This document shows, piece by piece, positions 6,380 through 63,728 of a stretch of 64,000 nt of DNA. Each line of letters begins with the position of its first letter. Within the stretch, counting starts at the first letter, position 1. This stretch comes from Eledone cirrhosa (Eukaryota). Where the stretch lies: assembly GCA_964016885.1 (NCBI GenBank), contig OZ024740.1, positions 212,102,001 through 212,166,000 of the forward strand, in the 5' to 3' direction. The notes beneath the pieces are model-generated. The model saw only the letters and a program-made list of their open reading frames with translations, was not told the origin of the DNA and ran no database searches. A program made the position numbers and the translations under genes.

Positions 6380-7655
6380 GTAACTCTGGTGGCTGGATAG
6401 CTGGGCGTGGTGGCGATGGCTGGATGTCAAGCGATGTCAGGTTGGGTGATGGTGTCATTTGTAGATCTGTAGGATTTTGAGGATCTTTGGTGGTGTCCTT
6501 TGTAAGCAGGGGGCTCCAGAATAAATGGTTGGCGGAGCAAGAAAGACATACCTTGTTGTCTTTGTTGGGATCATTGGGGTAAGTCGTCTGATAAGGTGAT
6601 CTGTGCCTTCGGTGGAAGAACATTTCCAGTTTCGAAGGGCCACTCTGCCCGATTCATCCATGTGTATGACATACTGATCAAACTGACGAACTTCAATCAC
6701 ACAGCCTGTTTTGTCCCATTTTAATGGTTGAGGGCCTGTTTGATTTTGTATTCGCACGAGATCTCCAATAACAAGGGGTGGTAATTGCCTGGTGTGTTCA
6801 GAAAGGCGTTCTGCAATCTTCATGTGCCTGTTTCTGAGGGCATCTTCTCTCAAGGCAAGTGTGTCATGCCAGGTGTCATGAGGCTTGTAGCGGCCGGGAA
6901 GGATTGGAATGAAATCCTTAATGGGTCTACCAAAGACAAACATCACAGGGGATAACTTGGTGTGTCTGTCTGGGGTGTTTCTGTATTGCAGCATGGTGCG
7001 TTGCAGTGAGTCCGTGTCTAACTCGTCGTTGGGTCCCGTGTTGTCTATAACGAGACGTTTCACAGTTTTAACACCAACTTCTGCCCAACAGTTGCTGTGG
7101 GGGAAGGTGACTGAAGAGAGTCGATGATGGACACTCCAGTTTTTCAAGAAATCCCTGGCTGCTGAGGCTGTAAACTCAGGGCCACCATCTGAGGACATTT
7201 CGTCTGGAATTCCAAAAGTGACAAATGTACGGCGTAGACTGTCAATTAGGCCTTTGGCACCTTTCCGAGATCTCTCTACAATCGGCCAGTTGGAGTATCT
7301 GTCAACAATGACCAGATAGTTCACCCCTTTGTAGTGGAAGTAGTTAGCGCAAATGCGCTGGAAGGGATAAACAGGGTATACTGGTGGGGTAGGTGGAGCA
7401 CATGGTTGAGACGGTGCCATCCGATTGCAGTGGGCACATGTATTCCTGAACTCTGTGATTGCTGTTGTAATTCCAGGCCAGAAGACAGACGATTCAGCCC
7501 TTGACATCATAGAAGATACGCCTTGGTGGGCGGAGTGGAGTGCTGTTAGAATGTCATGTCGGAGTGATGGTGGAATGACAATGCAGTCTTTGTAGAGAGC
7601 CACGCCATCCACTGAGTGTAGGTGCTCTCGGAATTGATGATATTCACGAAAGACA
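6380..7655 (-). mobile_element. Ty3/Gypsy pol fragment (integrase)
   Basis: ORF 6455-7612 has the HHCC finger (HSAHQG...CAHC), a DDE core (ANYFH with D>N, SDGGPEF, HSNCWAE) and the GDLVRIQ/KW GPY-F-like region. No LTR seen. Confidence 0.92.
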
Positions 7656-7754
7656 TTACAGATGGCACAGGATGGTACAGGACGGTACGATGTGGGTTTT
7701 GTGCGTGTAAAGATTTTTATTATTTATTTAAGAAAAGAAAAAGAAAAAGACAGA

Positions 7755-7793
<39 letters not shown>

Positions 7794-7860
7794 CGTAAAA
7801 TAAGAAAATATTTTTTAAAAAAATTTTTTAAAAATTTTTTACTTACTTACTTAAATTTTC

Positions 7861-7942
7861 ACTCCAACTAATTAGTTTCTGCAATGGGATAAAGACAGTT
7901 ACATAATCCAACTGTCGAGAATTCATTGCGTCATCAGGGAGT
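7861..7942 (-). ncRNA. Type I hammerhead ribozyme (copy 3)
   Basis: Direct repeat of 8415-8496. Confidence 0.8.
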
Positions 7943-8414
7943 CTATTCTCAGCTGAGCCTCCAGGCAATGCGCGGACACTGGCGGCTCATATAAAAATAA
8001 TAATTCGGTAGAAAGAACAGCTAGGCGAGGACTGGATTCTATATACTGAAATTCTCACTGCTTCCAGTCAAATGGCCGATTCTAAAGAATCAATCACGTG
8101 ACATAGAGGCTAGTTAGAAGGAATGGGATGGTAAGATGACTGACGCCTACTAACACCCCAAAAAAAATTTTGAAGTGGTTTTGGCAGGTTTGCTCGACAA
8201 ATCAGTGATTTGGAGATAAATATAGATAATTTAATATATCAACTAACATAGGCGCACAGATGCACGTCCATGCCAGCAAATACACAGGTTATGTCATAGT
8301 ACCTAGGTGGTTCAATGCAGGAGGGTGCAGAACAATAATATAAAAGACGTAAAATAAGAAAATATTTTTAAAAAAAATTTTTTTTAAATTTTTTACTAAC
8401 TTACTTAAATTTTC

Positions 8415-8496
8415 ACTCCAACTAATTAGTTTCTGCAATGGGATAAAGACAGTTACATAATCCAACTGTCGAGAATTCATTGCGTCATCAGGGAGT
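8415..8496 (-). ncRNA. Type I hammerhead ribozyme (copy 2)
   Basis: Reverse complement of 8512-8593. Confidence 0.8.
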
Positions 8497-8511
8497 CTAT
8501 TCTCAGTCTAG

Positions 8512-8593
8512 ACTCCCTGATGACGCAATGAATTCTCGACAGTTGGATTATGTAACTGTCTTTATCCCATTGCAGAAACTAATTAGTTGGAGT
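8512..8593 (+). ncRNA. Type I hammerhead ribozyme
   Basis: actcc-CTGATGA-c-gcaatg..gacagtt/aactgtc..cattgc-a-GAAA-ctaattag-TT-ggagt. Stem I actcc/ggagt; palindromic stem III ACTAATTAGT; GUU cleavage triplet; C-A mismatch at the base of stem II. Confidence 0.8.
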
Positions 8594-8783
8594 GAAAATT
8601 TAAGTAAGTAAGTAAAAAATTTTTTAAAAATTTTTTTAAAAAATATTTTCTTATTTTACGTCTTTTATATTATTGTTCTGCACCCTCCTGCATTGAACCA
8701 CCTAGGTACTATGACATAACCTGTGTATTTGCTGGCATGGACGTGCATCTGTGCGCCTATGTTAGTTGATATATTAAATTATC

Positions 8784-8804
<21 letters not shown>

Positions 8805-8814
<10 letters not shown>

Positions 8815-9525
8815 AATAAAAATGAAAATTGAAACAATGAAAAATTCCCAGGTGGGCTCCTTTTTGGCACGGAAGGAGCGTCTTAGTGTTAGTTCCTGTG
8901 TGTTGGTCAGGGAGGGTGTTAGGCAGGATGCTGGGGTAGGTGTTGTGCTACTTTTTTTTAATGTAGTGTGGCAGGCTAAGGCGGTCCTCTAGTTTAGTCA
9001 TGTTTTCAGCGCTTTTGGTGGCTTCTTGAACCTTGTTCCAAGTGATTGATTGGAGTGAGTTGATGGATGACACGGCTGAGGGGAAGGTTCAAGAAGCCAC
9101 CAACAGCGATGAAAACATGACTAAACTGGTGGATATGATAGAAACAGGGATGCCAGAGGACCGCCTTAGCCTGCCGCACTACATTCAAAACAAGTAGCAC
9201 AACACCTACCCCAGCACCCTGCCTAACACCCTCCCTGACCAACACACAGGAACTAACACTAAGACACTCCTCCCGGGCCAAGAAGGAGCCCACCTGGGAA
9301 TTTTTCATTGTTCCAATTTTCATTTTTATTGTTTATATATTTATGTTTCTATGTCTTTTTCTTTTCTTATATAAATAATAAAAATCTTCACACGCACAAA
9401 ACCCGCATTGTACCATCCTGTACCATCCTGTACCATCCTGTACCCTCCTGTACCCTCCTGTACCGTCCTGTGCCGTCTGTAATGTTTTTCTTGATGTCAG
9501 CCCTTATGGCCAATAAAGAGATCAT
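8805..9525. repeat. Inverted duplication of a chimeric Gypsy-pol / Tx1-3'UTR segment
   Basis: 8805-9033 is the reverse complement of 9084-9340. The + arm reads KVQEATNSDENMTKLVDMIETGMPEDRLSLPHYI and later the Tx1 3' UTR, ending AATAAAGAGATCATT. Confidence 0.8.
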
Positions 9526-16278: not shown

Positions 16279-19200
16279 GGCGACCTACGTAGTAAATCGT
16301 ATTATCGTGAGCTCCGCAAAGGTTTGTTATTTCCGTTTGTTAAAAATTGCCATTTATGGAAAATTTTATTGTTAACTGTTTATAAGCACACATACATTGT
16401 TTTCCGAAAAGGACACCCAAAAAGATTGGGGCCTTGTGCCCAAAATTTTAACTTTTATTATTATCCAAAAATTTCTTTGAAAAAAAATGGCTAATTCCCC
16501 TCTGCACGAAGCAGCTGAAAGCCTTCCTCACAAAATAACACCTCACACCGACACCACCATTGTAAATGTTACTACGTTTGCCAACACAAAAAAAAAATAT
16601 AAGCAGTAGCAATATTTTAAATTTGTCTCAGGCAGACATTCATTTCCCGCCATTACCAATGACTGCAGGTGTTAAAGCCTCCACCACCACCACCACCGCG
16701 ACAACCACCACCCCCACCACCACCGCGACAACAGAAACAAAAGAAGAAAAAAATAAATTAACTTGTGATGTCGAAATGAAATTAAGCAAGATGGACTCTT
16801 CCGCAGCAAAGACGACTGACGTCACCACCACCACAACTGAAACTAAAATTAAGATTAACACAAATAACGATAGCAACAACAACAACAATGACATTATAAA
16901 ACCGACCCTCAGTTTCGCCATCGTAGCAAAACAATTCGAAGCGTTCACGGTAACTCAAGAGGATTTAGAAAATGCCAAACAAATGGTAAAGAAAGATGAG
17001 TACAGGGTCAGCCTCACCCCCCCCCCACCTAATAAAATGGAGCATCGGCGCCTATGCACCGTGTCGTATAAAACAATAAATGTAAAATCGCGCTGAGTGG
17101 AACGGGCATCCGAGTCCCAAATCCAAAAAGCTTTGGGACATGTGTGGGCAAGAAAAACCCACATCAGACGTGGGTAAAAGTATGGAACCGTGGATGTGTT
17201 CTTTGAAACACCAGAGGAGGCTAGAGAACACTCCATGGCCCCATTAAAAAGTGACGACTTCACACTCGTCCCAAGCTATTGTGGCCAGAGACTCGTAAAG
17301 ATCAGGGTGACCCACGTTCCACCGGCCATCGAAATTCCCTGGCTAATAGCGGCTGTCCTCGCCGGCATCGAAGCCAACACGAAAATAATAGCAATAGCAA
17401 AAGAAAAGCAGGAAAACTGGTCCGGATCTGGGATGGAGCTCCTAATCCAAGCGGACCAAAAAAGCATTGAGGAGATCCCAGAGGTAATAGACCTCACTGA
17501 CGGCAGCCACCTCACGGTAATTGTCGAGGGCAGAAGACCTAGGTGTGTCGTTTGTGGTGAAGGAACCCACCTAAGGGCTTTCTGCCCTCAGGCTAAAAGG
17601 TTGAGGCCACCTCTCCTACCCACCCCAGTGACACAACCATCAACACCACCAGTAGCAGAGATGGCAGCAACAACAGTAGCAGCAACAACAGAAGCAACTA
17701 TAACAGCAACAACCCCAGCAACAGTAGCAAAACCAACACCACTACCACCACCAGCAAAACCAACACCACCACCACCCAATGCTTCAGAACTAGCACCAGC
17801 GCCTACACCATCCACCACGCCACAACCAAAACTAACGGCTGTGGAGGATTTTCCACTCCCCGGCCTATCACAACTGGAGACAGATTGTGACGACAAGGAG
17901 TGGGAAACGATATCCGGAAAAAAAAAAGAAACCAAAAAAGAAAAAATTCTCTTCCTTCCCCCTCCAAAAACAAAATACAGAGGGAAACAAATAAATTAAG
18001 AAACAAAAAAGTTAGGACAGATATGCCACCATCCACACCAGCATCACCAACCCCATCAACCCAAACACCAACACCATCACCATCATTAACCCCAACACCA
18101 CCATCACCTACACCACAAAAGTCACCAAAATGCGAAACAGAAACAAACCCACAACAAACGCAAACAAAACAAAACAACCAAAACGATACACACTACACAG
18201 CATTAAATTTGAACAACAAGCAATTATTACACTACATCCAACACAACACCAGCATCACAGAAAAAGACTACACAACAACCCCAAAATTCACACCACCTCC
18301 ACACATACAAATCACTCGCATCACACAGAAAACGTACATGACACTAACAAAAAATTCCCCAAAGACATCGGAGACTTCCGACAAGCACTCTCCAGGAGGA
18401 TTTATAAGGACATCCTTCCTGAGGAGGCCACAAGCAGTGAAAAGGATGGAAAAACCGTCCTTCCCCTACGAGAAGTAAGGTAAGTGGTCTTTCCCATCTT
18501 TTCCACTCCTTTTCAACATGACCTCACTCAGAATAGGCAGCATAAATGCGCGTGGCTTGGGGTCGTCATGGGAGCAGGGCCACCTGCTCAACGACCTCAG
18601 GTCACTAAACATAGATGTAGTGGCCATCAGCGAGACCAGAATCTCCGAAGCACAGGCTTTCGCACCGAACTTCGGCGGCTACGATGTGTACGCATCTCCC
18701 AGCCGTCCGGGATCGGGGGGAGGAGTTGCTGTGCTTTTTCGGAGAGGTTTGGATCTTGCCATACGGGCCATCTTCCTGGACCCAGAAGGTAAGTTGGTGG
18801 TGATGGACGTGACCAGCGGAGACGGGCAAGCTTTCAGGTTAGTGGCCGTCTATGCCCCGACAGGAGCAGGGTGGCCTGATTTCTTCCGGCGTCTGGAGAC
18901 CTTTCTTGGAACGTCCCGCTCTTTAGTGTTAGTGGGCGACTGGAACGGGATCTTAGATGCACGCTGGGATTGTGTGGGATTAGTGGATAGGGAAGGAGGG
19001 TGCAAGAGTCTCACCAACCCGCTCAGACGTTTTGAACTGTCTGACAGGTACCGAATGGATTTCCCGAATGTACCAATGTGGACTTGGACAAATCGCATAG
19101 GGTCATCCAGATCATAACTAGATAGAGTATTTTGTAGGGAAATAGATAGGTCCAGCATAGGCTGTCCACAATTCAAGATAGTCAGCTACACGGACCACAA

Positions 19201-22180
19201 ATTCCTGATCTGTGTGCTTGACTTAGATAGGCTTCATAGACAAGGACCCGGCTACTGGAAGCTAAACGCGTCCTTACCAGCGCGCAAGGCCTACAGAGAC
19301 CGGATTAGCGAACTAGTTAAGCGGGCGTTGACGGGGGCCATCGTCAACAACAAGTGGTGGTTTGCTCTGAAAAGAGCAATTAGAATACACTCCATTAGGT
19401 TTAGTAAGACTTTAGCAATAGAGAAAAATAGAGCAGAGGGAGAATTAGTTAGAAAATTAGATGAGGCGCTTAGCAAAGGCATCGCGACCGACGTACTTGC
19501 GGCGAAATTGGCCCTTAACCAATTCTTCAATGCAGAGCACGAAGGCTGTGTTGTCAGAGCTAGGGTGCGTGCTCTCAGGCACAAGGGGACAAAAGCCGTT
19601 CAATGGGCCCGAGTGGTGGAGGCGCGTCGTGGCAACAAAGCCACGATCCGGTCTTTGGTGGACCACGACGGGCGCATGCTACTCGATCCCGGGCAAATGT
19701 GTGAAGCTTTTCAGCGACACTTCACTCAACTGTTCGGGGGCAGTGGCGGGCCGGATCGAGGGATGGACTTTAGTGTCTACCTCGACGGACTGCCGCGGCT
19801 TTCGGCCACTGAGGCGGAGTATTGCGAAAAGCCGATAACAACCGCTGAAGTACGGGATGCAATGACTAGTTGCACAAGGGGTAAATCGCCTGGTTTGGAT
19901 GGTCTGCCCTATGAACTTTACGTACAAATGCCAAACTTGTTCGGAGGCCTCTTGGCGGACGTCTACTGCAACTGGCAACAGAACGGGAGAATTCCCAGCT
20001 CTGTGAGCCGAGGAGCGGTGGCGCTGCTGAGAAAGGATCCGAACAAGGGGGATAACATAGATAATTTTAGGCCCATAACTCTGCTAAAGACAGAGTTCAA
20101 GATTTTGGCCAAGGTGCTAGCAAAGAGGTTGGCGCTTGTCGTTGGCGGTCTGGTGGGAGAGGCACAGACATGCGCCATTCCCGACAGATCCATCCACGAC
20201 AACCTCCACCTCATGCGATACATCGTAGAGAGGGTAGCTAGGGAACCTGGCACGGGTGGGTCTTTGATCAATTTAGATCAGTCGAAAGCCTTCGATAGGG
20301 TCGACCATCGTTACCTAGCGGCAGTCCTGAGGGCGGCTGGCTTTGGGCCCGTCTTCAGAGGCTGGATCGCTGCCATGCACAGCGACATCTGCTCTGTAGT
20401 GAGAGTGAACGGTCACCTTTCGGAACCGTTCAACATCATGCGCTCGGTCCGCCAAGGATGTCCCCTCTCGTCCCTATTGTACGTATTGACTCTCGAGCCA
20501 TTACTGCACAAACTGGAGACGTTGAGGGGGGTCCCGCGCGAACTAGGATGCGGGAGATCCGTGTCAGCATATGCCGACGATGTCACCATAGTGGTGTCGA
20601 ACGCCAAACACATCGAGGCGATCGGCACTACACTAAAGGAATACGAAGCGGTGACAGGAGCAATGATCAACCAGGAAAAGTCAGTGGGCCTGCAGCTCGG
20701 CACCTGGAGAGGCAGGTCCATGCCGTCCAACAGCGTCGTCGGGCGCTGGACGGACGGACCGGTTAAATTGCTAGGGGTCTGGTTCGGTCCAGACCTCCAG
20801 ACGGACAAAAACTGGGACGAGGTGACGAGCAGGGTGGCTTCTCTCACCCAGAAATGGGCCGAGAGGAAGCTATCCCTGAAAGGTCGAGCGGAGGTGGCGA
20901 ATGCGTACATCGCATCCGTCATCTACTACCGCCTGACCGTCGTACCTTGTCCTAAGCCCCGCCTGACTGCGCTGGAGCGTTTGCTCTTTCGCTTCTTGTG
21001 GAAAGGATGCGCTCCGATGGTCAGGCGGTCCATCTGCTGTCAACACCCGCTACGTGGAGGGCTGGGCATGCCATGGCTGATGATGCGCAGACACGCGCTC
21101 AGGCTACGACATCTCCACCTCTTCCTCGACGGTGATCAGGTGTGGTCGCCGTTTGCTAGATGCGTTTTTCCCCAGCTCGTCTCCTTGACGGAGCTGCAGT
21201 CCTGGGTCAAGCGAAGACCGAGAGGGAGCGCTTGGAGACTGGAATGTCTTCAGGCGCTCACAGCCCTCGACCAATCGGGCAATGTGATCGGTGGAAACTC
21301 CACCTTGGCATTCTATAGGGGATTAGTGGAGGGGAAGAGCGACGACGTACTTGGAGAAACTCTCGGCGTCGACGAAAATCAACTAGCCAATCTCTTCGGA
21401 AGGACTTTCGGGCCGGGGCCTATGGACAACTTCCAGAAATCCCTGGCCTGGCAGTGCTACCGAGGAGCTTTGCCAGTTCGGGATAAACTCTACAGGCATG
21501 GAGGTGCCGTCAGTCGGGCATGTCCGAGATGCGCGCAGGGCGACGAAACCGTCCTGCACGCACTCGTCCAGTGTCCGAGCATTGCTGACTTGTGGGTTTA
21601 TGTCGAACACCTGCTGTCACGTGTAGGACGGATCCAGCTATCAGCTGAGTCCATCGTGAGGATTGCCCCGCCCCCTTCCTTTAGCCGGGAAGGGCAGGCA
21701 GTTTTTATCTGTCTGGTGGCCATGGCGAAAGAGATAGTATGGTGGACACGTTTGAAAGGGCTGAAGACGAGCACTTACCTCTTCGGTGATGCCCTGATTA
21801 ACTTTTTCAAATTTCATTTGAAAAGGAAAATCAGGGTAGAGAGGGAAGTGCTCTCTTCCCAGCATTTTGTTGAAAGATGGGTGAGAGAAGCAAGTATGGC
21901 TCGAATGAATGGGCCTTCTCTGAGTATGTGTCTGTAAATTAAAGGTGGAAAACTGGGAGAGGGCACTTGCCCTGGTGGTCAGGGCCACTGTGGTCTTTTA
22001 ATGGGCTTTCTCCACAAATGTCCCTCGGAAGTCTCCCCCCTATTGGGGAATTTTTCTTTGTTATTTTATTTCATCCTCTGTTTTTTTTACACGCAGAAAT
22101 GCCCATTTGTACCGTCCTGTATTGTCCTGTACTGTCCTTAATGTCTACTTTATGTAAACCCTTGTGGTTAATAAAGAAAA

Positions 22181-24729: not shown

Positions 24730-25464
24730 TAGATAAAAAAAACTTTTGATATACAAAGGAGAAGAAACAGCATTGTAAGGGGTGAGAATTTGCTTCAACT
24801 AGAAATAGAAACTGTATTGTGGGCTAAATGCTGCTGCTGCCGCTGCTGCTGCTACCATTGCTGTTGTTGCTGCTGCTGCTTCTTTTCTTCTTCTTCGTCT
24901 TCTTCTTCTTCTTCTTCGTTTTCTTCTCATCATTTTAGTGATATCAGTTGTGCATTCTTGCAGTCGTTTCCAGGAGTTAATCAAATTTTGTAGGGTTGGT
25001 CCCTCACTGTATTTAGCACATTCCTCCTCCATTTGTTGGTCAATATCCTGATATTTTTGTTCATTGGAGGTAGCTCTTAATTTTAAGAGTTCTATTTCCA
25101 TATTCATTTTGTTGAGTGACATTTGTTCGCGTAGTTTCCTTTGTTGTTCAGGCTCATTAGTTATGGGTTTTATTTGGAATTTATGGGGTAAGATTAGTGG
25201 TGTGGAGTTGATCCAGTTTTCATAGATTCCAGCTTTGTTCATATTTTTCACCATATTCCAAAGAGTGAATTTTCTTGTTTTCAATTGTTTTTTTTTTTCA
25301 AAAGTGTCAGATTTTGTTTTTAATTAAGGTGTTCGCTCTAACATAGCTGTATATATCAATAGGATAGATTAAGCATGGCACAGTGTAAGATAAGACTGAC
25401 ATTTTTAATTTACAGGCACAATTATTTTTTTCCAGCTGAGTGGCTTTGAGTAACATGAAATAAT

Positions 25465-25695: not shown

Positions 25696-28418
25696 AACTT
25701 AGTCACGTATTATACACCTCACAATATGTTCTATCAACTATAAACTTAGTCATGTATTACACACCTCACAATACTTTGTATCAACTATACTAATATAAAC
25801 AGTCATGTATTACACACCTCACAATACTTTGTATTAACTATACTAATATAAACAGTCATGTATTACACATCTCACAATACTTTGTATTAACTATACTAAT
25901 ATAAACAGTCATGTATTACACATCTCACAATACTTTGTATTAACTATACTAATATAAACTTAGTCATGTATTACACACCTCACAATACTTTGTATCAACT
26001 ATACTAATATAAACAGTCATGTATTACACACCTCACAATACTTTGTATTAACTATACTAATATAAACAGTCATGTATTACACACTTCACAATACTTTGTA
26101 TCAACTATACTAATATAAACAGTCATGTATTACACACCTCACAATACTTTGTATTAACTATACTAATATAAACAGTCATGTATTACACACCTCACAATAC
26201 TTTGTATCAACTATACTAATATAAACAGTCATGTATTACACATCTCACAATACTTTGTATTAACTATACTAATATAAACAGTCATGTATTACACATCTCA
26301 CAATACTTTGTATTAACTATACTAATATAAACAGTCATGTATTACACATCTCACAATACTTTGTATTAACTATACTAATATAAACAGTCATGTATTACAC
26401 ATCTCACAATACTTTGTATTAACTATACTAATATAAACAGTCATGTATTACACATCTCACAATACCTTGTATTAACTATACTAATATAAACAGTCATGTA
26501 TTACACATCTCACAATACTTTGTATTAACTATACTAATATAAACAGTCATGTATTACACACCTCACAATACTTTGTATCAACTATACTAATATAAACAGT
26601 CATGTATTACACACCTCACAATACTTTGTATTAACTATACTAATATAAACAGTCATGTATTACACACTTCACAATACTTTGTATCAACTATACTAATATA
26701 AACAGTCATGTATTACACACCTCACAATACTTTGTATTAACTATACTAATATAAACAGTCATGTATTACACATCTCACAATACTTTGTATTAACTATACT
26801 AATATAAACAGTCATGTATTACACACTTCACAATACTTTGTATCAACTATACTAATATAAACAGTCATGTATTACACACCTCACAATACTTTGTATCAAC
26901 TATACTAATATAAACAGTCATGTATTACACATCTCACAATACTTTGTATTAACTATACTAATATAAACAGTCATGTATTACACACTTCACAATACTTTGT
27001 ATTAACTATACTAATATAAACAGTCATGTATTACACACCTCACAATACTTTGTATCAACTATACTAATATAAACAGTCATGTATTACACATCTCACAATA
27101 CTTTGTATTAACTATACTAATATAAACAGTCATGTATTACACACTTCACAATACTTTGTATTAACTATACTAATATAAACAGTCATGTATTACACACTTC
27201 ACAATACCTTGTATCAACTATACTAATATAAACAGTCATGTATTACACACCTCACAATACTTTGTATCAACTATACTAATATAAACAGTCATGTATTACA
27301 CACTTCACAATACTTTGTATTAACTATACTAATATAAACAGTCATGTATTACACACTTCACAATACTTTGTATCAACTATACTAATATAAACAGTCATGT
27401 ATTACACACCTCACAATACTTTGTATCAACTATACTAATATAAACAGTCATGTATTACACATCTCACAATACTTTGTATTAACTATACTAATATAAACAG
27501 TCATGTATTACACACTTCACAATACTTTGTATTAACTATACTAATATAAACAGTCATGTATTACACATCTCACAATACTTTGTATTAACTATACTAATAT
27601 AAACAGTCATGTATTACACATTTCACAATACTTTGTATCAACTATACTAATATAAACAGTCATGTATTACACACCTCACAATACTTTGTATTAACTATAC
27701 TAATATAAACAGTCATGTATTACACACTTCACAATACTTTGTATCAACTATACTAATATAAACTTAGTCATGTATTACACACCTCACAATACTTTGTATT
27801 AACTATACTAATATAAACAGTCATGTATTACACATCTCACAATACTTTGTATCAACTATACTAATATAAACAGTCATGTATTACACGCCTCACAATATGT
27901 TCTATCAACTATACTAATATAAACTTAGTCATGTATTACACACCTCACAATACTTTGTATCAACTATACTAATATAAACAGTCATGTATTACACACCTCA
28001 CAATACTTTGTATTAACTATACTAATATAAACAGTCATGTATTACACACCTCACAATACGTTCTATCAACTATACTAATATAAACTTAGTCATGTATTAC
28101 ACACCTCACAATACTTTGTATTAACTATACTAATATAAACAGTCATGTATTACACACCTCACAATACTTTGTATCAACTATACTAATATAAACTTAGTCA
28201 CGTATTACACACCTCACAATACGTTCTATCAACTATACTAATATAAACTTAGTCATGTATTAAACACCTCACAATACTTCCTAACACACCTCACAATACT
28301 TTGTATTAACTATACTAATATAAACAGTCATGTATTACACACCTCACAATACTTTGTATCAACTATACTAATATAAACAGTCATGTATTACACACCTCAC
28401 AATACTTTCTATCAACTA
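25696..28418. repeat. 53-bp tandem minisatellite, ~51 units; ~4 more units at 29620-29838
   Basis: Unit AGTCATGTATTACACACCTCACAATACTTTGTATTAACTATACTAATATAAAC (starts at 25801 and 25854), with few variable positions. Confidence 0.97.
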
Positions 28419-29620
28419 TCATCATCATCATCATCAACATTTAATGTCCGTGTTCCACGCTTGCATGGGTTTGGACGGGGGTTTTCCCACTTGAGGCAAG
28501 AGTGATTGTCTTGCTCGCATAGGACTGTCTGGCAGGTTTTCTACAGCTGGATGCCCTTCCTAACACCAACCACATTTCCAGTGTGGGTCTGGGAGGTTTT
28601 TACCGTGTTGCCTACACGGCCACATTACAGCGTGGACTGTGTGTTTTTTTGTCGTGACACCTACACGATCTCATTTGTTTCGGCCTGGATGGTGTGGCAC
28701 CAACATAACTTTACATAGAAGGGGGCGGTGTGGATGGGGTGGGGGTGGTGGGACGGGGGTGTATTTTGTTAGAGATGCCTACTGACTGTAGTAGGTTTTA
28801 CTTTGTATTTAGGTAAGGCGGGTCTTCTCTATTACTGAGTACCGCCAAAGGTCTCGGTCCAGTGACATTGTCTTGGTGAGGTGTAAGTGTGTGAGGTCGG
28901 AGTTTATCAGCTCATCCCAGGTTTTTCTGGGTCTGCCTATTCCGTGGCTACCGTCTATCTTTATTGCCCTGCACTTTGTTATACAGCTATTGTCCTTCAT
29001 GCGCATCACGTGACCATACCAACGTAACCTTCTCTCGAGTAAACAACATCTGATCCCTCTTATTTCTAATTTTTTCCTTAGTTCGTTTATGCTTTGTCGT
29101 TCACGTATATTACTATTACACATCCAGCGGAGCATGCAAGCTTCGTTTCTCTCTAGTCTGCTTATATCCTCTGCACACAATGCCCAGGTCTCACTGCCAT
29201 GCAACATTGCTGTTCGTATGCAGGCATCGTACAACCTGCCTTTCATTTTTAGGGAGAACCCTTTAGCGGCTAATAGTGGTATAAGCTCTCTGAACTTTTT
29301 CCACCCAGTTCTGACTCTAGCTACTGTACTTTCAGAGCACCCTCCCCCACTGCTGATTTTGTCACCCAGGTAACGGAAGCTGTCCACTATTTCTATAGAA
29401 CCCTCTGCGCAGTTGAAAGAGCTAGTATTTTGTGGGCACTTGCTGTTACTTATTGCCCCAGAACACCGGCCACATGTAAAATCTATGTTCTTAGTTAGCT
29501 TACCTGTGATCCCACTAATTCTTTTATGCACCCAAACTTTGCATTTGGGACACAAAATGGAATTTCTACCTACGCCTTTCCTACACTCTGCGCATGGCCA
29601 CTTCCCAGAGGGGACCGCCA
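28419..29620 (-). mobile_element. 5'-truncated RTE-clade LINE inserted in the satellite
   Basis: ORF 28809-29621 has FRYLG, MLHGSETW, RLRWYGHV and GRPRKTW; (GAT)n tail at 28419-28435. Confidence 0.9.
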
Positions 29621-29904
29621 CTAATATAAACGTAGTTGTGTATTACACACCTCACAATACTTTGTATTAACTATACTAATATAAACAGTCATGTATTACA
29701 CACTTCACAATACTTTGTATCACCTATACTAATATAAACGTAGTCGTGTATTACACACCTCACAATACTTTGTATTAACTATACTAATATAAACGTAGTC
29801 GTGTATTACACACCTCACAATACTTTGTATCAACTATATCACTTTACTGTCAAATATATATTTCAGAGAAGCTTTATATGTTTACTCTGTCAGTAAAAAG
29901 AAAT

Positions 29905-36451: not shown

Positions 36452-36825
36452 GATATAGTTGATACAAAGTGTTGTGAGGTGTGTAATACACGACTACGTT
36501 TATATTAGTATAGTTAATACAAAGTATTGTGAGGTGTGTAATACATGACTAAGTTTATATTAGTATAGTTAATACAAAGTATTGTGAGGTGTGTTAGGAA
36601 GTATTTTGAGGTGTTTAATACATGACTAAGTTTATATTAGTATAGTTAATACAAAGTATTGTGAGGTGTGTAATACATGACTAAGTTTATATTAGTATAG
36701 TTAATACAAAGTATTGTGAGGTGTGTTAGGAAGTATTGTGAGGTGTTTAATACATGACTAAGTTTATATTAGTATAGTTGATAGAACGTATTGTGAGGTG
36801 TGTAATACGTGACTAAGTTTCATTA
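36452..36825. repeat. Short inverted copy of the 53/55-bp minisatellite (~7 units)
   Basis: Reverse complement of the units at 25696-28418. Confidence 0.92.
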
Positions 36826-37559: not shown

Positions 37560-38930
37560 CAATTGAAAACAAGAAAATTCACTCTTTGGAATATGGTGAA
37601 AAATATGAACAAAGCTGGAATCTATGAAAACTGGATCAACTCCACACCACTAATCTTACCCCATAAATTCCAAATAAAACCCATAACTAATGAGCCTGAA
37701 CAACAAAGGAAACTACGCGAACAAATGTCACTCAACAAAATGAATATGGAAATAGAACTCTTAAAATTAAGAGCTACCTCCAATGAACAAAAATATCAGG
37801 ATATTGACCAACAAATGGAGGAGGAATGTGCTAAATACAGTGAGGGACCAACCCTACAAAATGTGATTAAATCCTGGAAACGACTGCAGAATTGATATCA
37901 CGAAAACGATGTGAAAAATCTGAAAACTGTTTCCTTAAATATGAAGAGGATTTCAAAAATACACATCACCCAGAAAACCTCTTTATAAAGAAATTAAACA
38001 AAACAAGAACCCCCACAGAAACATTCATACTGCCAACCCTAACACACATAAACCACAGACAAAACCTCACTCAACACAAACAAATACAACCAGCTACAGT
38101 AGAAGAAACATACCCAACCATCACAACATAAGTACCCACAAAAATATCTCCTACAGAAACCAACCCCAAAACAAGATAGAACTAACCCACAACATAAACA
38201 GCATATACTTCAGAAGAAATCCACCTGGACCACATGAAATCCCAACAAACTTTTCCCCACATTAACAACTGCAACAGGTATCACCCCTAACACTACAAAA
38301 AACAACCTTTTATCAACACTATGTATTCTAGATGAATCCACCAAGACCACACAAAACCACCACTGAACCCTTACACAACAACGACAACAATGGGTACCAT
38401 TCCCAACACTGTTAACCCTCGAAAGAAAACATCCTACAGATCCATACAAAACAGACTATAATTACACCCAAAATAACATTCCTTTTTTAGAACAAAGACT
38501 GAAATACCAGGACACCCGATGGCTCCTATACATGAAAAACTGAAGGTAATTAACCTTTCAAAGAAATCACTAACTAACACAAAAATTAACATATTAAGTA
38601 AGAGACTGAAATTTACACCCACACCACAAAAATCAAACTTTCCTGAAATGAAAGATGACATCATGGAATTTTGACAAAAACTCAGACTAACCGAATACTT
38701 CTCCAATGACACCAACACTGAAGACGAATCAATAGTGAGAAACAAAAGTGATTTCTGCCCACACAAATGAAGGAACTCAGCACTGGACACCTACTGCAAA
38801 CACATGATCAACTTTCCCTATGAGAAAATTGAAAATAAACACACAAAATCGAACCTCTCAAAACATGAACGGAAAGAATTATTCACACTGAGATAACACA
38901 GAAATAACCATCAAAGAAGGCGATAAAATA
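37560..38930 (+). mobile_element. Degenerate Penelope-like element, N-terminal ORF region
   Basis: INLSKKSLT..ILSKRLKFTPTP..KLRLTEYF and a terminal IKEGDK resemble the PLE pre-RT region (NLS...KGL.F.PTP...IK.ADK). Many stops. Confidence 0.65.
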
Positions 38931-57097: not shown

Positions 57098-57369
57098 GCA
57101 CGTCCTGAAAATAGAAATTATATTTACTCAAGTCAACAGTATAAACATATAAAGCGCAGACGATTTCTCTTAATCACTGCTATACATTCGTTGTGTTATA
57201 AAAAGTTGACAGTATATATACACATAAATATATACGATTAACATTCATGACTTCGTATATATGATTACCATTCATGCATTTAACATTTCTGTAATCCAAA
57301 CTGCGTGGTTATGCAACATAACTTTTACCCACACATATACATACACACACATATATACATATACACCTA

Positions 57370-57622
57370 TATATGTATAAATAAATATATATGTATATAT
57401 ATGTATATAATATTATATATATATGTATACATATATATATGTATACATATATATATGTATATAATATAATATATATATATGTATATAATATTATATATAT
57501 GTATATATGTATATAATATATATATATATGTAAATAATATTATATATATGTATATATGTATATAATATATATATATATATATATGTATATATATGTATAT
57601 AATATATATATATAAATATATG

Positions 57623-57696
<74 letters not shown>

Positions 57697-58208
57697 ATAT
57701 TATATATATGTATATAATATTATATATATGTATATAATATTATATATATGTATATAATATTATATATATATATATATGTATATAATATTATATATATGTA
57801 TATAATATTATATATATGTATATATGTATATAATATTATATATATGTATATATGTATATAATATTATATATATATGTATATATATATGTATATATGTATA
57901 TAATATTATATATATATATATGTATATATGTATATAATATTATATATATATGTATATATATGTATATATGTATATAATATTATATATATATATGTATATA
58001 ATGTATGTATATAATATTATATATATATATATGTATATATATATATGTATATAATATTATATATATATATATGTATATATGTATATAATATTATATATAT
58101 ATGTATATATATGTATATATGTATATAATATTATATATATATATGTATATAATGTATGTATATAATATTATATATATATATATGTATATATATATATGTA
58201 TATAATAT

Positions 58209-58242
<34 letters not shown>

Positions 58243-58395
58243 TATGTATATAATATATATATATATATATGTATATAATATATATATATATATGTATATA
58301 ATATATATATGTATATATATATATATGTATATAATATTATATATATATATATGTATATAATATTATATATATGTATATATATATATGTATATAAT
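57370..58395. repeat. Compound (TA)n satellite with GTATATAATATTA cores
   Basis: Repeated ATGTATATAATATTATAT(AT)n. Confidence 0.95.
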
Positions 58396-58770
58396 TCGTT
58401 TCTGAATTTGTTTAGCAAGATTCTTTATCTGAAAACGTGTGTTGAAACCGATATTGTTATATTTTGGGAGGGTCATGTTGCCAATAAGAAACACACGCAC
58501 CAGTTGCTTTCACTTCAATTTATTATAATAAATTTATAAATTTAGGAATTTTTAAATTTCCGGTTGGTTGGTTGGTTCTACAACCATATGCTTGTTTATA
58601 TATTGTCAAAGTTCTTTCGTCACACATTCTGTGACCTCTTCAGAATCCCCAGTCACTGAATAGGTCACAGAATGTGTGACGAAAGAACATTGACAACATA
58701 TAAACATCCACCTGGTTGTGGAACCAACCAACCAACCGGAAATTTATAAATTTATTATAATAAATTGATA
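58396..58770. mobile_element. PLE terminal fold-back with two back-to-back hammerhead motifs
   Basis: 58515-58643 is inverted at 58656-58768. Arms contain CTGAA(G/T)AG-gtcaca(gaatg)tgtgac-GAAAG. Homologous to 51550-51770. Confidence 0.78.
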
Positions 58771-58774
58771 TTAA

Positions 58775-59194
58775 TGTATATATATAGATGTATATAATAT
58801 TATATATATATATATGTATATATGTATATATAATATTATATATATATGTATATATATATATAATATTATATATATATGTATATATATATATGTATATAAT
58901 ATATATATATATGTATATATATATATGTATATAATATATATATATATGTATATATATATATGTATATAATATTATATATATATATATGTATATATATATA
59001 ATATTATATATATATATATACATGTATATAATATTATATATATATATATGTATATAATATTATATATATATATGTATATAATATTATATATATATATATG
59101 TATATATGTATATATATGTATATAATATTATATAAATATATATGTATATATATATATGTATATAATATTGTATATATATATATGTATATAATAT

Positions 59195-59241
<47 letters not shown>

Positions 59242-59292
59242 GTATATAATATTATATATATATATATGTATATATATATATGTATATAATAT

Positions 59293-59325
<33 letters not shown>

Positions 59326-59662
59326 GTATATAATATTATATATATATATATGTATATATATATATGTATATAATATTATATATATATATGTATATATATA
59401 TATGTATATAATATTATATATATATACGTATATATATATGTATATAATATTATGTATATATATATGTATATATATATATGTATATAATATTATATATATA
59501 TATATGTATATATGTATATAATATTATATATATATATATGTATATATGTATATAATATTATATAAATATATATGTATATAATATTATATAAATATATATG
59601 TATATATATATATGTATATAATATTATATATATATATGTATATATATATATGTATATAATAT

Positions 59663-59695
<33 letters not shown>

Positions 59696-59706
59696 GTATA
59701 TAATAT

Positions 59707-59743
<37 letters not shown>

Positions 59744-60123
59744 GTATATAGTATTATATATATATATATTTATATATATATATGTATATAATATTATATA
59801 TATATATACGTATATATATATGTATATAATATTATGTATATATATATGTATATAATATTATGTATATATATATGTATATAATATTATATATATATATATG
59901 TATATATATATATGTATATAATATTATATATATATATATGTATATATATATATGTATATAATATTATATATATATATATGTATATGTATATAATATTATA
60001 TATATATACGTATATATATATGTATATAATATTATGTATATATATATGTATATAATATTATATATATATATGTATATATATATATGTATATAATATTATA
60101 TATATATGTATATATATATATAT
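58775..60123. repeat. Compound (TA)n satellite
   Basis: Same unit and orientation as 57370-58395. Confidence 0.95.
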
Positions 60124-60161
60124 GATAAAGAACACAAGGGCGTCTATAACATCAAAAACTT

Positions 60162-60220
60162 TTTATTGGCTTACAATGTTTCTTCCTTACGTAACCGTAG
60201 GATTCTTCAGAGCTATAAAA
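60162..60220 (-). ncRNA. Hammerhead-like motif
   Basis: gct-CTGAAGA-atcctacg(gtta)cgtaaggaa-GAAA-c(att)g-TA-agc; GUA triplet; mismatch at the base of stem II. Confidence 0.6.
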
Positions 60221-61304
60221 GGGGTTTGATTGGTGTTATGGACTCTACCAACCAAACATTCAAGAACAAAGAGTAAAGAGAGTAAAGAGCAAAAGCAGGG
60301 GACAATAAGTCTAATTTAGGTGCGGGAGGGTGGGCTGTGGGTCCTTGTTTACTAGCTGTGGTCATATTTATTCCCGGGAGTCGAGTGGTTAGTGGAGCCA
60401 TAGAAGGGGTGGCATTGATAGTAGGGTGCAGAGGGTGTGCAGAGGCTACACACACACACAAAGGGCATATAATATACATATAACGGAGGAGAAAGTACAT
60501 GAGGTAATTAGAAATGGAATAAGAATAATAATAATTTATAGTTAATAATGTATAAGGCATAGGGAAGATTACACTATAATAAGGTATAAAAGTAAGAATA
60601 AAATAAAATATAAATGAGGATAAAAATGAAAATAAGAATAAAAAAAAATATATATATATAAAAATATATAGAGAATATATAAAAAATATAAGCAAGTATC
60701 AGAAAGGGAAAAACACAATGTAAAAAAACAGATTTTGTTAAATAAAAATATAAATATGGGGGGAGAAAACGGGAGAGAGAAATATAATCATAATGTGAAT
60801 AGTTGAGAGAATATAAGATGATTATAAGTGTGTCAAGGTTATACATCTTAATAATAAATAATATGTATATCAGAGTTACACATTTTTCAATGCACTTGCA
60901 AGTCCAACCCACGTGGCATAGTCCATCGCTCATCTGTGCGGTCGTGTGTGTTTGTGTTTGACCACACAACAGATCCACAAGTTCGTAAATTTCAATGCAG
61001 ATAGAATTCTATTTGTGCTTAACCGGACATTGACGGAGGATCCAATATTCCCAGTTCATTGCCGACCAAATATGTGTTATTTTGGTCGCATAAATCAGTT
61101 ACTTGGTTCAATATTATGGAGTATGGTTTTCTGGTCTTCGATACACTATCAGTGGTTGTATATCTCGAACTCACAAGGATCACAGTACTCCGATTTGGTA
61201 TGATTATCGGTCATCCAACTATGTTGTCGGTGGTTGGATTCAAATCTATTGCCCAGAACGTAGAACTTTGGTGTTGATTGAACATTATATATGTATATTG
61301 AACC

Positions 61305-61324
61305 TTTATGTATGTATATAATAT

Positions 61325-61358
<34 letters not shown>

Positions 61359-61417
61359 TGTATATAATATTATATATATATTATATGTATATATATATAT
61401 GTATATAATATTATATG

Positions 61418-61470
<53 letters not shown>

Positions 61471-61975
61471 ATATTATATTATTATATATATATATGTATA
61501 TAATATTATATGTGTATTATATTTATATATATATGTATATAATATTATATATATATTATATGTATATATATATATGTATATAATATTATATGTATAATAT
61601 ATATATATATATGTATATAATATTATATGTATAATATATATATATATGTATATAATATTATATGTATATTATATATATATATGTATATAATATATATATG
61701 TATATAATATTATATGTATATTATATATATATATATGTATATAATATATATATGTATATAATGTTATATGTATAATATATATATATATGTATATAATATT
61801 ATATGTATATTATATATATATATATGTATATAATATTATATATGTATATATGTATATAATATTATATATATATATATATGTATATTATATATATATGTAT
61901 ATAATTTTATATATATATATGTATATATATATGTATATAATATTATATATATATATATATATGTGTATATAATAT

Positions 61976-62008
<33 letters not shown>

Positions 62009-62105
62009 GTATATAATATTATATATATATATGTATATAATATTATATATGTATATATATATGTATATAATATTATATATATATATATGTATATGTATAT
62101 AATAT

Positions 62106-62136
<31 letters not shown>

Positions 62137-62147
62137 GTATATAATAT

Positions 62148-62185
<38 letters not shown>

Positions 62186-62197
62186 TGTATATAATAT

Positions 62198-62231
<34 letters not shown>

Positions 62232-62235
62232 ATAT

Positions 62236-62267
<32 letters not shown>

Positions 62268-62271
62268 ACAT

Positions 62272-62304
<33 letters not shown>

Positions 62305-62315
62305 GTATATAATAT

Positions 62316-62349
<34 letters not shown>

Positions 62350-62397
62350 TATGTATATAATATTATATATATATATGTGTATATATATATGTATATA

Positions 62398-62428
<31 letters not shown>

Positions 62429-62592
62429 TGTATATAATATTATATATATATATGTATATATATATATATGTATATAATATAATATATATATATATGTATA
62501 TATATATATGTATATAATATTATATATATATATGTATATATATATATATGTATATAATATTATATATATATATATATGTATATATATAATAT

Positions 62593-62631
<39 letters not shown>

Positions 62632-62698
62632 GTATATAATATTATATACATATATATATATATACATATATATATATATGTATATAATATTATATATG

Positions 62699-62735
<37 letters not shown>

Positions 62736-62754
62736 GTATATAATATTATATATG

Positions 62755-62785
<31 letters not shown>

Positions 62786-62965
62786 GTATATAATATTATA
62801 TATGTATATATATATATATATGTATATAATATTATATATGTATATATATATATATGTATATAATATTATATATGTATATAATATTATATATGTATATAAT
62901 ATTATATATGTATATATATATATATATGGTATATATATATATATATGTATATAATATTATATATG

Positions 62966-63001
<36 letters not shown>

Positions 63002-63135
63002 TGTATATAATATTATATATGTATATATATATATATGTATATGTATATAATATTATATATGTATATAATATTATATATGTATATATATATGTATGTATAT
63101 ATATATATATGTATATATATATATGTTTATAATAT

Positions 63136-63225
<90 letters not shown>

Positions 63226-63237
63226 ATATTATATATG

Positions 63238-63288
<51 letters not shown>

Positions 63289-63408
63289 GTATATAATATT
63301 ATATATGTATATATATATATATGTATATAATATTATATATGTATATATATATATGTATATAATATTATATATATGTATATATATATATATATATGTATAT
63401 AATATTAT

Positions 63409-63452
<44 letters not shown>

Positions 63453-63728
63453 GTATATAATATTATATATGTGTATATATATATATATGTATATAATATT
63501 ATATATGTATATATATATGTATATATATATATATGTATATAATATTATATATGTATATATATATATATATAATATTATATATGTATATATATATATATGT
63601 ATATAATATTATATATGTATATATATATATATGTATATAATATTATATATGTATATATATATATATGTATATAATATTATATATGTATATATATATATGT
63701 ATATGTATATAATATATATATATATATT
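61305..63728. repeat. Compound (TA)n satellite
   Basis: Same unit and orientation, ~2.4 kb. Confidence 0.95.

Follow-up and report, generated by a model that had tools for sequence, protein, structure and literature searches.

The locus at positions 7790-8789 of the window (the whole stretch of 64,000 nucleotides that was analysed) is an ordinary member of a large repeat family. It is probably an insertion of a non-coding hammerhead repeat that was mobilised in trans by an endonuclease-bearing Penelope-like element (PLE), with both nicked strands at a (TA)n target priming separate cDNAs at different fixed sites. The most informative feature of the family is a pair of fixed 3' ends, which was absent from the initial annotation of this DNA.

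The limits of the insert were located at 7784-7789 (left) and 8788-8792 (right) and are blurred by a TATAT common to the insert and its flanks. The full repeat unit, from cut site to cut site, is the minus strand of 7866-8419 (554 nt, 37% GC, non-coding) and is numbered such that position 1 is the base following the predicted cut. The left arm (7784-8506, minus strand) contained unit positions 468-554, one full unit and positions 1-82, ending at the short fixed 3' end. The right, inverted arm (8509-8792, plus strand) contained positions 475-554 and then 1-200/204, ending at the long fixed 3' end. The arms are joined by a 9-nt loop (8500-8508), of which 7 bases belong to the left arm and 2 are extra. 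Three type I hammerhead motifs were identified: motif 1 (7860-7943) and motif 2 (8414-8497) on the minus strand, with predicted cuts at 7866/7865 and 8420/8419, 554 nt apart, and motif 3 (8511-8594) on the plus strand, with a predicted cut at 8588/8589. The initial annotation had described three identical hammerheads, and the 84-nt motifs did match letter for letter. It had also given a monomer period of 554 nt and an inverted repeat of about 280 bp with a 9-nt loop, both of which were recovered by a repeat scan as a direct repeat (179 nt, spacing 554, 96% identity) and an inverted repeat of 8216-8499 and 8509-8792 (284 nt, 98%, arms 9 nt apart). Its remarks that the insert lacks a credible ORF and sits in (TA)n were likewise borne out: the longest ORF from ATG in the circularised unit has 63 codons, and an (AT)15 tract (7758-7788) and a (TA)14 tract (8784-8811) lie on the left and right sides, respectively.

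Arm mapping covered 50 top-scoring loci and the complete set of 59 position-ordered loci, the latter holding the first 100 pattern matches on contig 1. In both sets the 3' ends clustered at unit position 82 and at 196-204, and arms ended at exactly 82 or 204 in 73 cases in the top-scoring loci and in 74 cases in the position-ordered loci. Templated sequence at the long end in fact reaches about 200, and TATAT terminates both end sites. Each of the 59 inverted loci in which both ends were resolved had a short and a long end (29 top-scoring and 30 position-ordered), and no short-short or long-long pair was found among these 59; two remaining inverted loci had only one end resolved, and three loci were cut by the fetched edge. 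Locus L129, a candidate short-short locus, was rejected as a false pattern match. Uninverted loci ended short in 27 cases, long in 17 and elsewhere in one. The window copy is the standard case, with the left arm reaching 82 and the right arm about 200.

The ends of the element are unit-internal positions and not LTRs. One end at about 82 and the other at about 200 is the one-sided 'tail' signature of PLEs, here of about 118 nt (8671-8788, plus strand), present at only one of the insertion's ends and predicted to form two hairpins. A one-sided tail is described for PLE insertions (PMC3846280, PMC8557442), and for PAc the tail is described as lying between two internal sites at which RT starts (PMC11167929). 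The two fixed points likely mark where copying starts. The same short/long pairing was observed in other hammerhead families of the genome, among them the ORF-bearing inverted PLE loci L101 and L110, with tails of about 55-145 nt.

To see how the inversion forms, 55 simple two-arm inverted loci can be compared. Arm starts lay within 15 nt of each other in 6 of them (3.1 expected by chance) and were unrelated in 49, and in 22 the long arm was longer than the short one by an amount greater than the tail. Under twin priming of the L1 type, the long arm would be expected to end at the short site, but it ran past this site in 45 of the 55 loci. The same variant was found on both arms in 703 of 712 cases, where an independent draw would have given 574 mixed ones, and this is best read as one template lineage having been primed twice, in separate events. 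The inverted loci are most simply explained if two cDNAs were primed on one RNA, or on RNAs that share a source, and their ends were then joined. Fold-back self-priming, in which one cDNA (or an antisense template) loops back and makes the inverted arm, was proposed for the rotifer Penelope (PMC3846280) and would suit the window copy, whose arms start 7 nt apart around a palindrome, and the 6 hairpin-like loci. However, it does not account for the 49 loci with unrelated arm starts or for the fact that either arm can be much the longer, and it leaves the constant stop of the second arm at the other fixed site unexplained. Fold-back is improbable and largely refuted for most loci; a hairpin-like minority may have formed in this way.

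Because the arms stop at two different fixed points, the mirror shape is likely a by-product of the insertion, produced by two priming events, and the window hairpin is one of the few cases in which two ends meet at a palindrome. The initial annotation had counted the antisense hairpin among the element's own features and had proposed that long dsRNA masks one ribozyme, so that the inverted third hammerhead would act as a functional antisense. Read-through RNA of 8216-8792 is predicted to fold with 95% of its bases paired. However, arm starts match in so few loci, the geometry varies so much from locus to locus and inversion is so often lacking (26 of the 59 position-ordered loci) that neither claim could be upheld, and the inverted arrangement showed no sign of selection. 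A masking function is thus very improbable, and the predicted dsRNA could be a side effect that feeds small-RNA silencing.

Nearly every mapped 3' end was followed by (TA)n or (CT)n(TA)n. The host site of the window copy is a TA run in the 3' UTR of a LINE, the left part of which lies at 7644-7757 (minus strand), and 21 empty copies carried about 2-9 TA repeats at the site, compared with the 15 and 14 that flank the insert. In a sister subfamily with CTCT at its long site, internal copies had at most 2 CT in 27 of 27 cases and terminal copies had 4-57 CT in 23 of 34 cases, the sorting into internal and terminal sites being heuristic. From these sequences, the terminal repeats would result from reiterative copying at RT initiation; the alternative is later growth of the microsatellite. 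No description of reiterative synthesis by a PLE RT was found in the literature searched, which lay mostly outside subscription journals. The host region 7644-9494 is itself an inverted duplication (arms at about 7644-9034 and 9084-9494) and a chimera of Gypsy-like sequence and LINE 3' UTR, and its uninserted arm keeps the short TA target. A degenerate (AT)n tract of 6.4 kb is located at 57351-63727.

Other genomic copies had been expected, and a 29-nt piece of the motif of this subfamily gave 4,189 exact matches in the 3.0-Gb assembly holding the window, while the reversed control gave 0; the motif is therefore not due to chance. Together with two sister subfamilies (units of about 535 and 525 nt), 9,487 exact motif matches were obtained, and the whole unit of about 525-555 nt is kept in the three subfamilies. 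A search with the unit returned 1,302 first-look candidates, of which 39 were scored and gave 217 matches, many in tandem. Among those listed, 108 matches spanned unit position 1-7 to 554 with 97-100% identity, in agreement with the young age assigned to the element. Since the first 100 matches fell in 59 loci, roughly 2,000-2,500 loci can be extrapolated, a figure that is inflated by large arrays. Divergence between loci was 1.0% in the top-scoring and 6.8% in the position-ordered set, which indicates a young burst on an older lineage. The tandem arrangement and the PLE-type insertion marks already noted for this locus were also recovered.

Head-to-tail repeats carried the hammerhead in at least two consecutive units, and copies within a locus shared one variant in 1,116 of 1,138 locus-site cases. 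One satellite-scale array of more than 130 kb with a 541-nt period (L405-L409, G000:C28:8.79-8.92 Mb) had mostly intact hammerhead cores in five 10-kb samples. Two further arrays of this kind were observed (L410-L411 and L412-L413): one measured at least 25 kb and had an inverted short arm at its end, and the other was about 19 kb long and delimited by (TA)n and by a short end. Such long arrays (19 kb to more than 130 kb) probably grew after insertion, and array length is therefore not purely a record of RT. No description of this repeat family was found in the mostly non-subscription literature searched, and similar families may be listed in the supplements of 10.64898/2026.07.22.740005.

The motif is composed of stem I (ACTCC/GGAGT), the core CTGATGA, a two-part stem II of 51 nt, GAAA and a palindromic stem III, ACTAATTAGT. 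In motif 3 (plus strand), the core is at 8517-8523, stem II at 8524-8574 and GAAA at 8575-8578, with the palindromic stem III completing it. The cleavage triplet is GUU and stem II is opened by an unpaired C and A at its base in all three copies. The type I core (C3-U4-G5-A6-N7-G8-A9, G12-A13-A14, A15.1-U16.1 and H17) is complete in the three copies, H17 being U, with an A variant in one sub-lineage. GUA replaces the GUU triplet in a sub-lineage of a sister subfamily (L265, L269, L272, L274, L281, L283 and L293). The aligned variants were chosen on the core, so its invariance is no independent evidence. Covariation was scored in 24 variants picked as recurrent among 171 distinct ones: 94.4% of cells were paired, compared with 34-47% in slid controls, both sides had changed at 8 of 21 pairs, and the covariation score, which relatedness of the sequences can inflate, was reached by 0 of 500 shuffles. 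The covariation is confined to the two parts of stem II; stems I and III are nearly invariant and hence uninformative. It supports a three-stem fold around the core that opens at stem I.

The pair 10.1-11.1 that would close stem II was absent, with C·A in 24 of 24 variants from three subfamilies. Genome-wide, A11.1 was present in 9,487 motifs and absent in 62, and the 30 of these 62 that were inspected were mostly point mutants or junctions. The C·A mismatch had been suspected of being damage that could impair the ribozyme; given this invariance, it is a family state and not decay, and it may slow cleavage. Other PLE-type hammerheads of the same genome have U·U at the base of stem II, and U·U at 10.1-11.1 is described in natural, active hammerhead variants (PMC3088659, PMC7229834).

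The Rfam Hammerhead_1 search suggested by the initial annotation gave no match, either in the window at the gathering score or in 7700-8900 at E≤10. The 51-nt stem II likely explains this miss, and the hammerhead call therefore rests on the core sequence and covariation. The best predicted fold of the monomer is inactive, with the core paired to stem III (-22.8 kcal/mol; the active fold has -18.1 kcal/mol), and a self-duplex of -9.0 kcal/mol is predicted for the palindrome of stem III. The predicted misfold and self-duplex would fit a weak, dimer-dependent ribozyme, and such hammerheads are described for PLEs (PMC4209133). Several ORF-bearing PLE families (L096 after 4809 on the minus strand, L067, L077 and L113) have a hammerhead-like fold at their termini with U3-A8 for C3-G8, read by eye as TTGAAAA or TTGATAA ... 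GAAA CCGG TA/TC. Folds of this U3-A8 type are missed by a standard CTGANGA scan.

Arms longer than one unit made up 52 of 110, and most templates were therefore circles or uncleaved multimers. In a strict rolling-circle retrozyme, efficient double cleavage would yield a 554-nt monomer that is ligated to a circle and serves as the usual RT template. The arms exceeding one unit, the uniformity of units within arrays, the conserved core and the covarying stem II all agree with this scheme, and circular RNAs were shown for coral, mussel and axolotl repeats (PMC7229834). However, linear read-through of uniform source arrays gives the same pattern, the monomer is predicted to misfold, and 8 of 9 Xenopus dimers are given as uncleaved in vitro (10.64898/2026.07.22.740005). 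Furthermore, a locus with both arms beginning at the cut site implies that the 5' end was linear. We consider the rolling circle a plausible route, somewhat short of an even chance.

In nine loci both arms started at G1 or within a base or two of it (five among the first 30 matches, three among 20 non-randomly picked and one earlier locus), and four of the nine consisted only of 1-82 joined to 1-200. Genome-wide, 84 matches had a non-T base before position 1. Junctions accounted for 15 of the first 30 matches at position 1, the cut site; for position 3 they were 10 of 30 (Fisher P=0.29). The 5' ends at the cut site numbered 8 of 80 in the top-scoring loci (2.9 expected) and 5 of 88 in the position-ordered loci (3.2 expected), so a general excess of starts there is not established. 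Head-to-head match pairs occurred 4 times among the 84 matches for position 1; for position 3, the 100 listed of 104 matches contained 0. These junctions suggest that some RNA was cut where predicted, through occasional cleavage in vivo. A cluster of 5' ends at 460-490 was considered as a transcription start and rejected for now (14 vs 4.5 in the top-scoring loci, 3 vs 4.9 in the position-ordered loci).

The genome contained 10,597 GIY-YIG first-look candidates, and long unbroken RT+GIY-YIG frames of 938 and 1,096 aa were found. These frames carry a CxxC linker motif, as given for Neptune and Nematis (PMC8557442). No PLE sharing the unit sequence or its hairpin was found in the 50 GIY-YIG loci examined, and BLAST of the unit against these 50 detected only two neighbouring sister-family insertions. 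A tblastn search of PLE proteins against 294 other loci and the window gave scattered neighbours with no fixed junction, no unit-to-ORF junction was present in the 294 loci or in 30 more, and a pattern search for motif variants at 11.1 and 11.2 yielded point mutants and junctions but no new ORF-linked family. Fragments resembling PLE N-terminal regions are located in the window at 24967-25284, 37563-37880 and 38483-38869. The unit might be a pseudo-LTR, solo or in tandem, belonging to an autonomous PLE that escaped detection, and not a self-standing replicator: retrozyme families of vertebrates frequently match PLE ends, and 24 of 57 Xenopus retrozyme families are reported to match known TEs, nearly all of them PLEs (10.64898/2026.07.22.740005), and the 50 loci are a small share of the PLEs of this genome. 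This is unlikely given the missing unit-to-ORF junctions, the perfect head-to-tail units without an ORF and the whole unit kept in three subfamilies.

A bulged hairpin motif, GTTCTG...GAACCAC (8674-8701, plus strand), lies just past the short end and was also found, right after a TATAT, in two unrelated families of non-coding hammerhead repeats (459 and 483 nt). This hairpin is a candidate protein-recruiting signal, judging from its recurrence. The 459-nt and 483-nt tandem families (L097:6700-7400; L041:300-900, L226 and L253) have a long stem II and a palindromic stem III.

Mobilisation in trans by a PLE would proceed as follows. The unit would be transcribed, and its hammerhead would likely cleave slowly or sometimes, as a dimer or aided by protein. 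By analogy with the biochemistry of PAc, the PLE protein would likely bind the structured tail and nick both strands of a short TA run. One strand would then prime at about unit 82 and the other at about 200, where the arms were found to end, with UAUAU at each site pairing with the target. The RT would likely stutter on dinucleotides before elongation, leaving the terminal repeats that were observed. Each cDNA, of a length that varied among the mapped arms and often covered several units, would be made on a circle or an uncleaved multimer. Its end would be joined head to head with that of the other cDNA, or one end to target DNA, to give inverted or uninverted copies. In vitro, PAc is reported to nick and extend both strands, with RT starting at two internal sites, one on each side of the tail (PMC11167929). 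Several results count against the mechanism: the tail of about 118 nt exceeds the 30-40 bp usually described for PLEs, the PAc start site is described as not target-homologous (PMC11167929) whereas both sites here share TATAT with the target, no unit-sharing PLE was found in 50 of the 10,597 candidates, Rfam had no match to the motif, and the best predicted fold of the monomer is inactive. A more detailed reading, which we advance tentatively and regard as rather doubtful in full, is that the family records PLE integration, in which a PLE dimer primes the strands asymmetrically at two tail-flanking sites on one RNA, telomerase-like stutter lengthens (TA)n, run-off occurs occasionally at the hammerhead-cut 5' end, and the GTTC...GAAC hairpin is a portable mobilisation signal of several unrelated ribozyme repeats.

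On its sequence features, the family would join, as a new member, the class of animal non-LTR retrozymes / non-autonomous PLEs, and its mechanistic record is unusually clear. It is non-coding, has a GC content of 37% (below 50%), no LTR structure and tandem hammerhead units, as in non-LTR retrozymes, and it has an inverted 5'-truncated copy, a one-sided tail (59 of 59) and (TA)n targets, as in PLE-mobilised elements. Animal non-LTR retrozymes are similarly described as non-coding, low-GC tandem repeats with one type I hammerhead per unit and thousands of copies, from monomers to long arrays (PMC7229834; 10.64898/2026.07.22.740005), and stem II of the axolotl HHR_Amex2 is likewise mismatched (U·U) at its base (PMC7229834). 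The unit of 554 nt is longer than the 150-450 nt of one account (PMC7229834) and falls inside the 51-972 range of the other (10.64898/2026.07.22.740005). The long two-part stem II, the C·A opening and the GUU triplet differ from the retrozymes in these accounts (PMC7229834; 10.64898/2026.07.22.740005), and the parts of them compared made no mention of inverted arms, two fixed ends or TA targeting.

Insertions of endonuclease-bearing PLEs, as described, share partial tandems, head-to-head inversion, a tail at one end, a palindromic stem III and (TA)n targets that hide target duplications, but the family differs in having no ORF, a tail of about 118 instead of 30-40, and up to dozens of perfect units (PMC3846280, PMC8557442). 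In contrast to the self-priming model for PLEs (PMC3846280), the data here favour two priming events. PAc (Poseidon, green anole) is alike in its two tail-bounding RT starts, in the nicking and extension of both strands and in its AT-rich targets, and its template in vitro was mostly uncleaved RNA (PMC11167929). However, its sites are close together and non-homologous to the target, the text consulted reports no strand-to-site asymmetry, and none of its RNA reads began at the cut site (PMC11167929), whereas both arms started at or next to the cut site in nine loci here.

Tandem hammerhead repeats are already known as retrozymes and have lately been tied to PLEs; the value of the present family is its sample size. 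It bears on how PLEs integrate, why inverted ends form and what role the hammerhead has in vivo, and its predictions can be counted: initiation should fall at two sites about 118 nt from each other, short and long ends should pair strictly, the two arms should carry one template variant, dinucleotides should be stuttered, and cDNAs should run off at the cut site. If the stutter is true, the many (TA)n tracts of this 3-Gb genome may be due in part to PLE activity.

Other features of the window were a Gypsy-type integrase fragment (rve, Integrase_H2C2) at 6458-7723 on the minus strand and a LINE ORF2 stretch of 939 aa (RVT_1, zf-RVT) at 19118-21937 on the plus strand. A 53-55-nt tandem repeat with about 48 copies at 95%, and with inverted relatives further on, was also found (25739-28419, 29620-29838 and 36454-36820).
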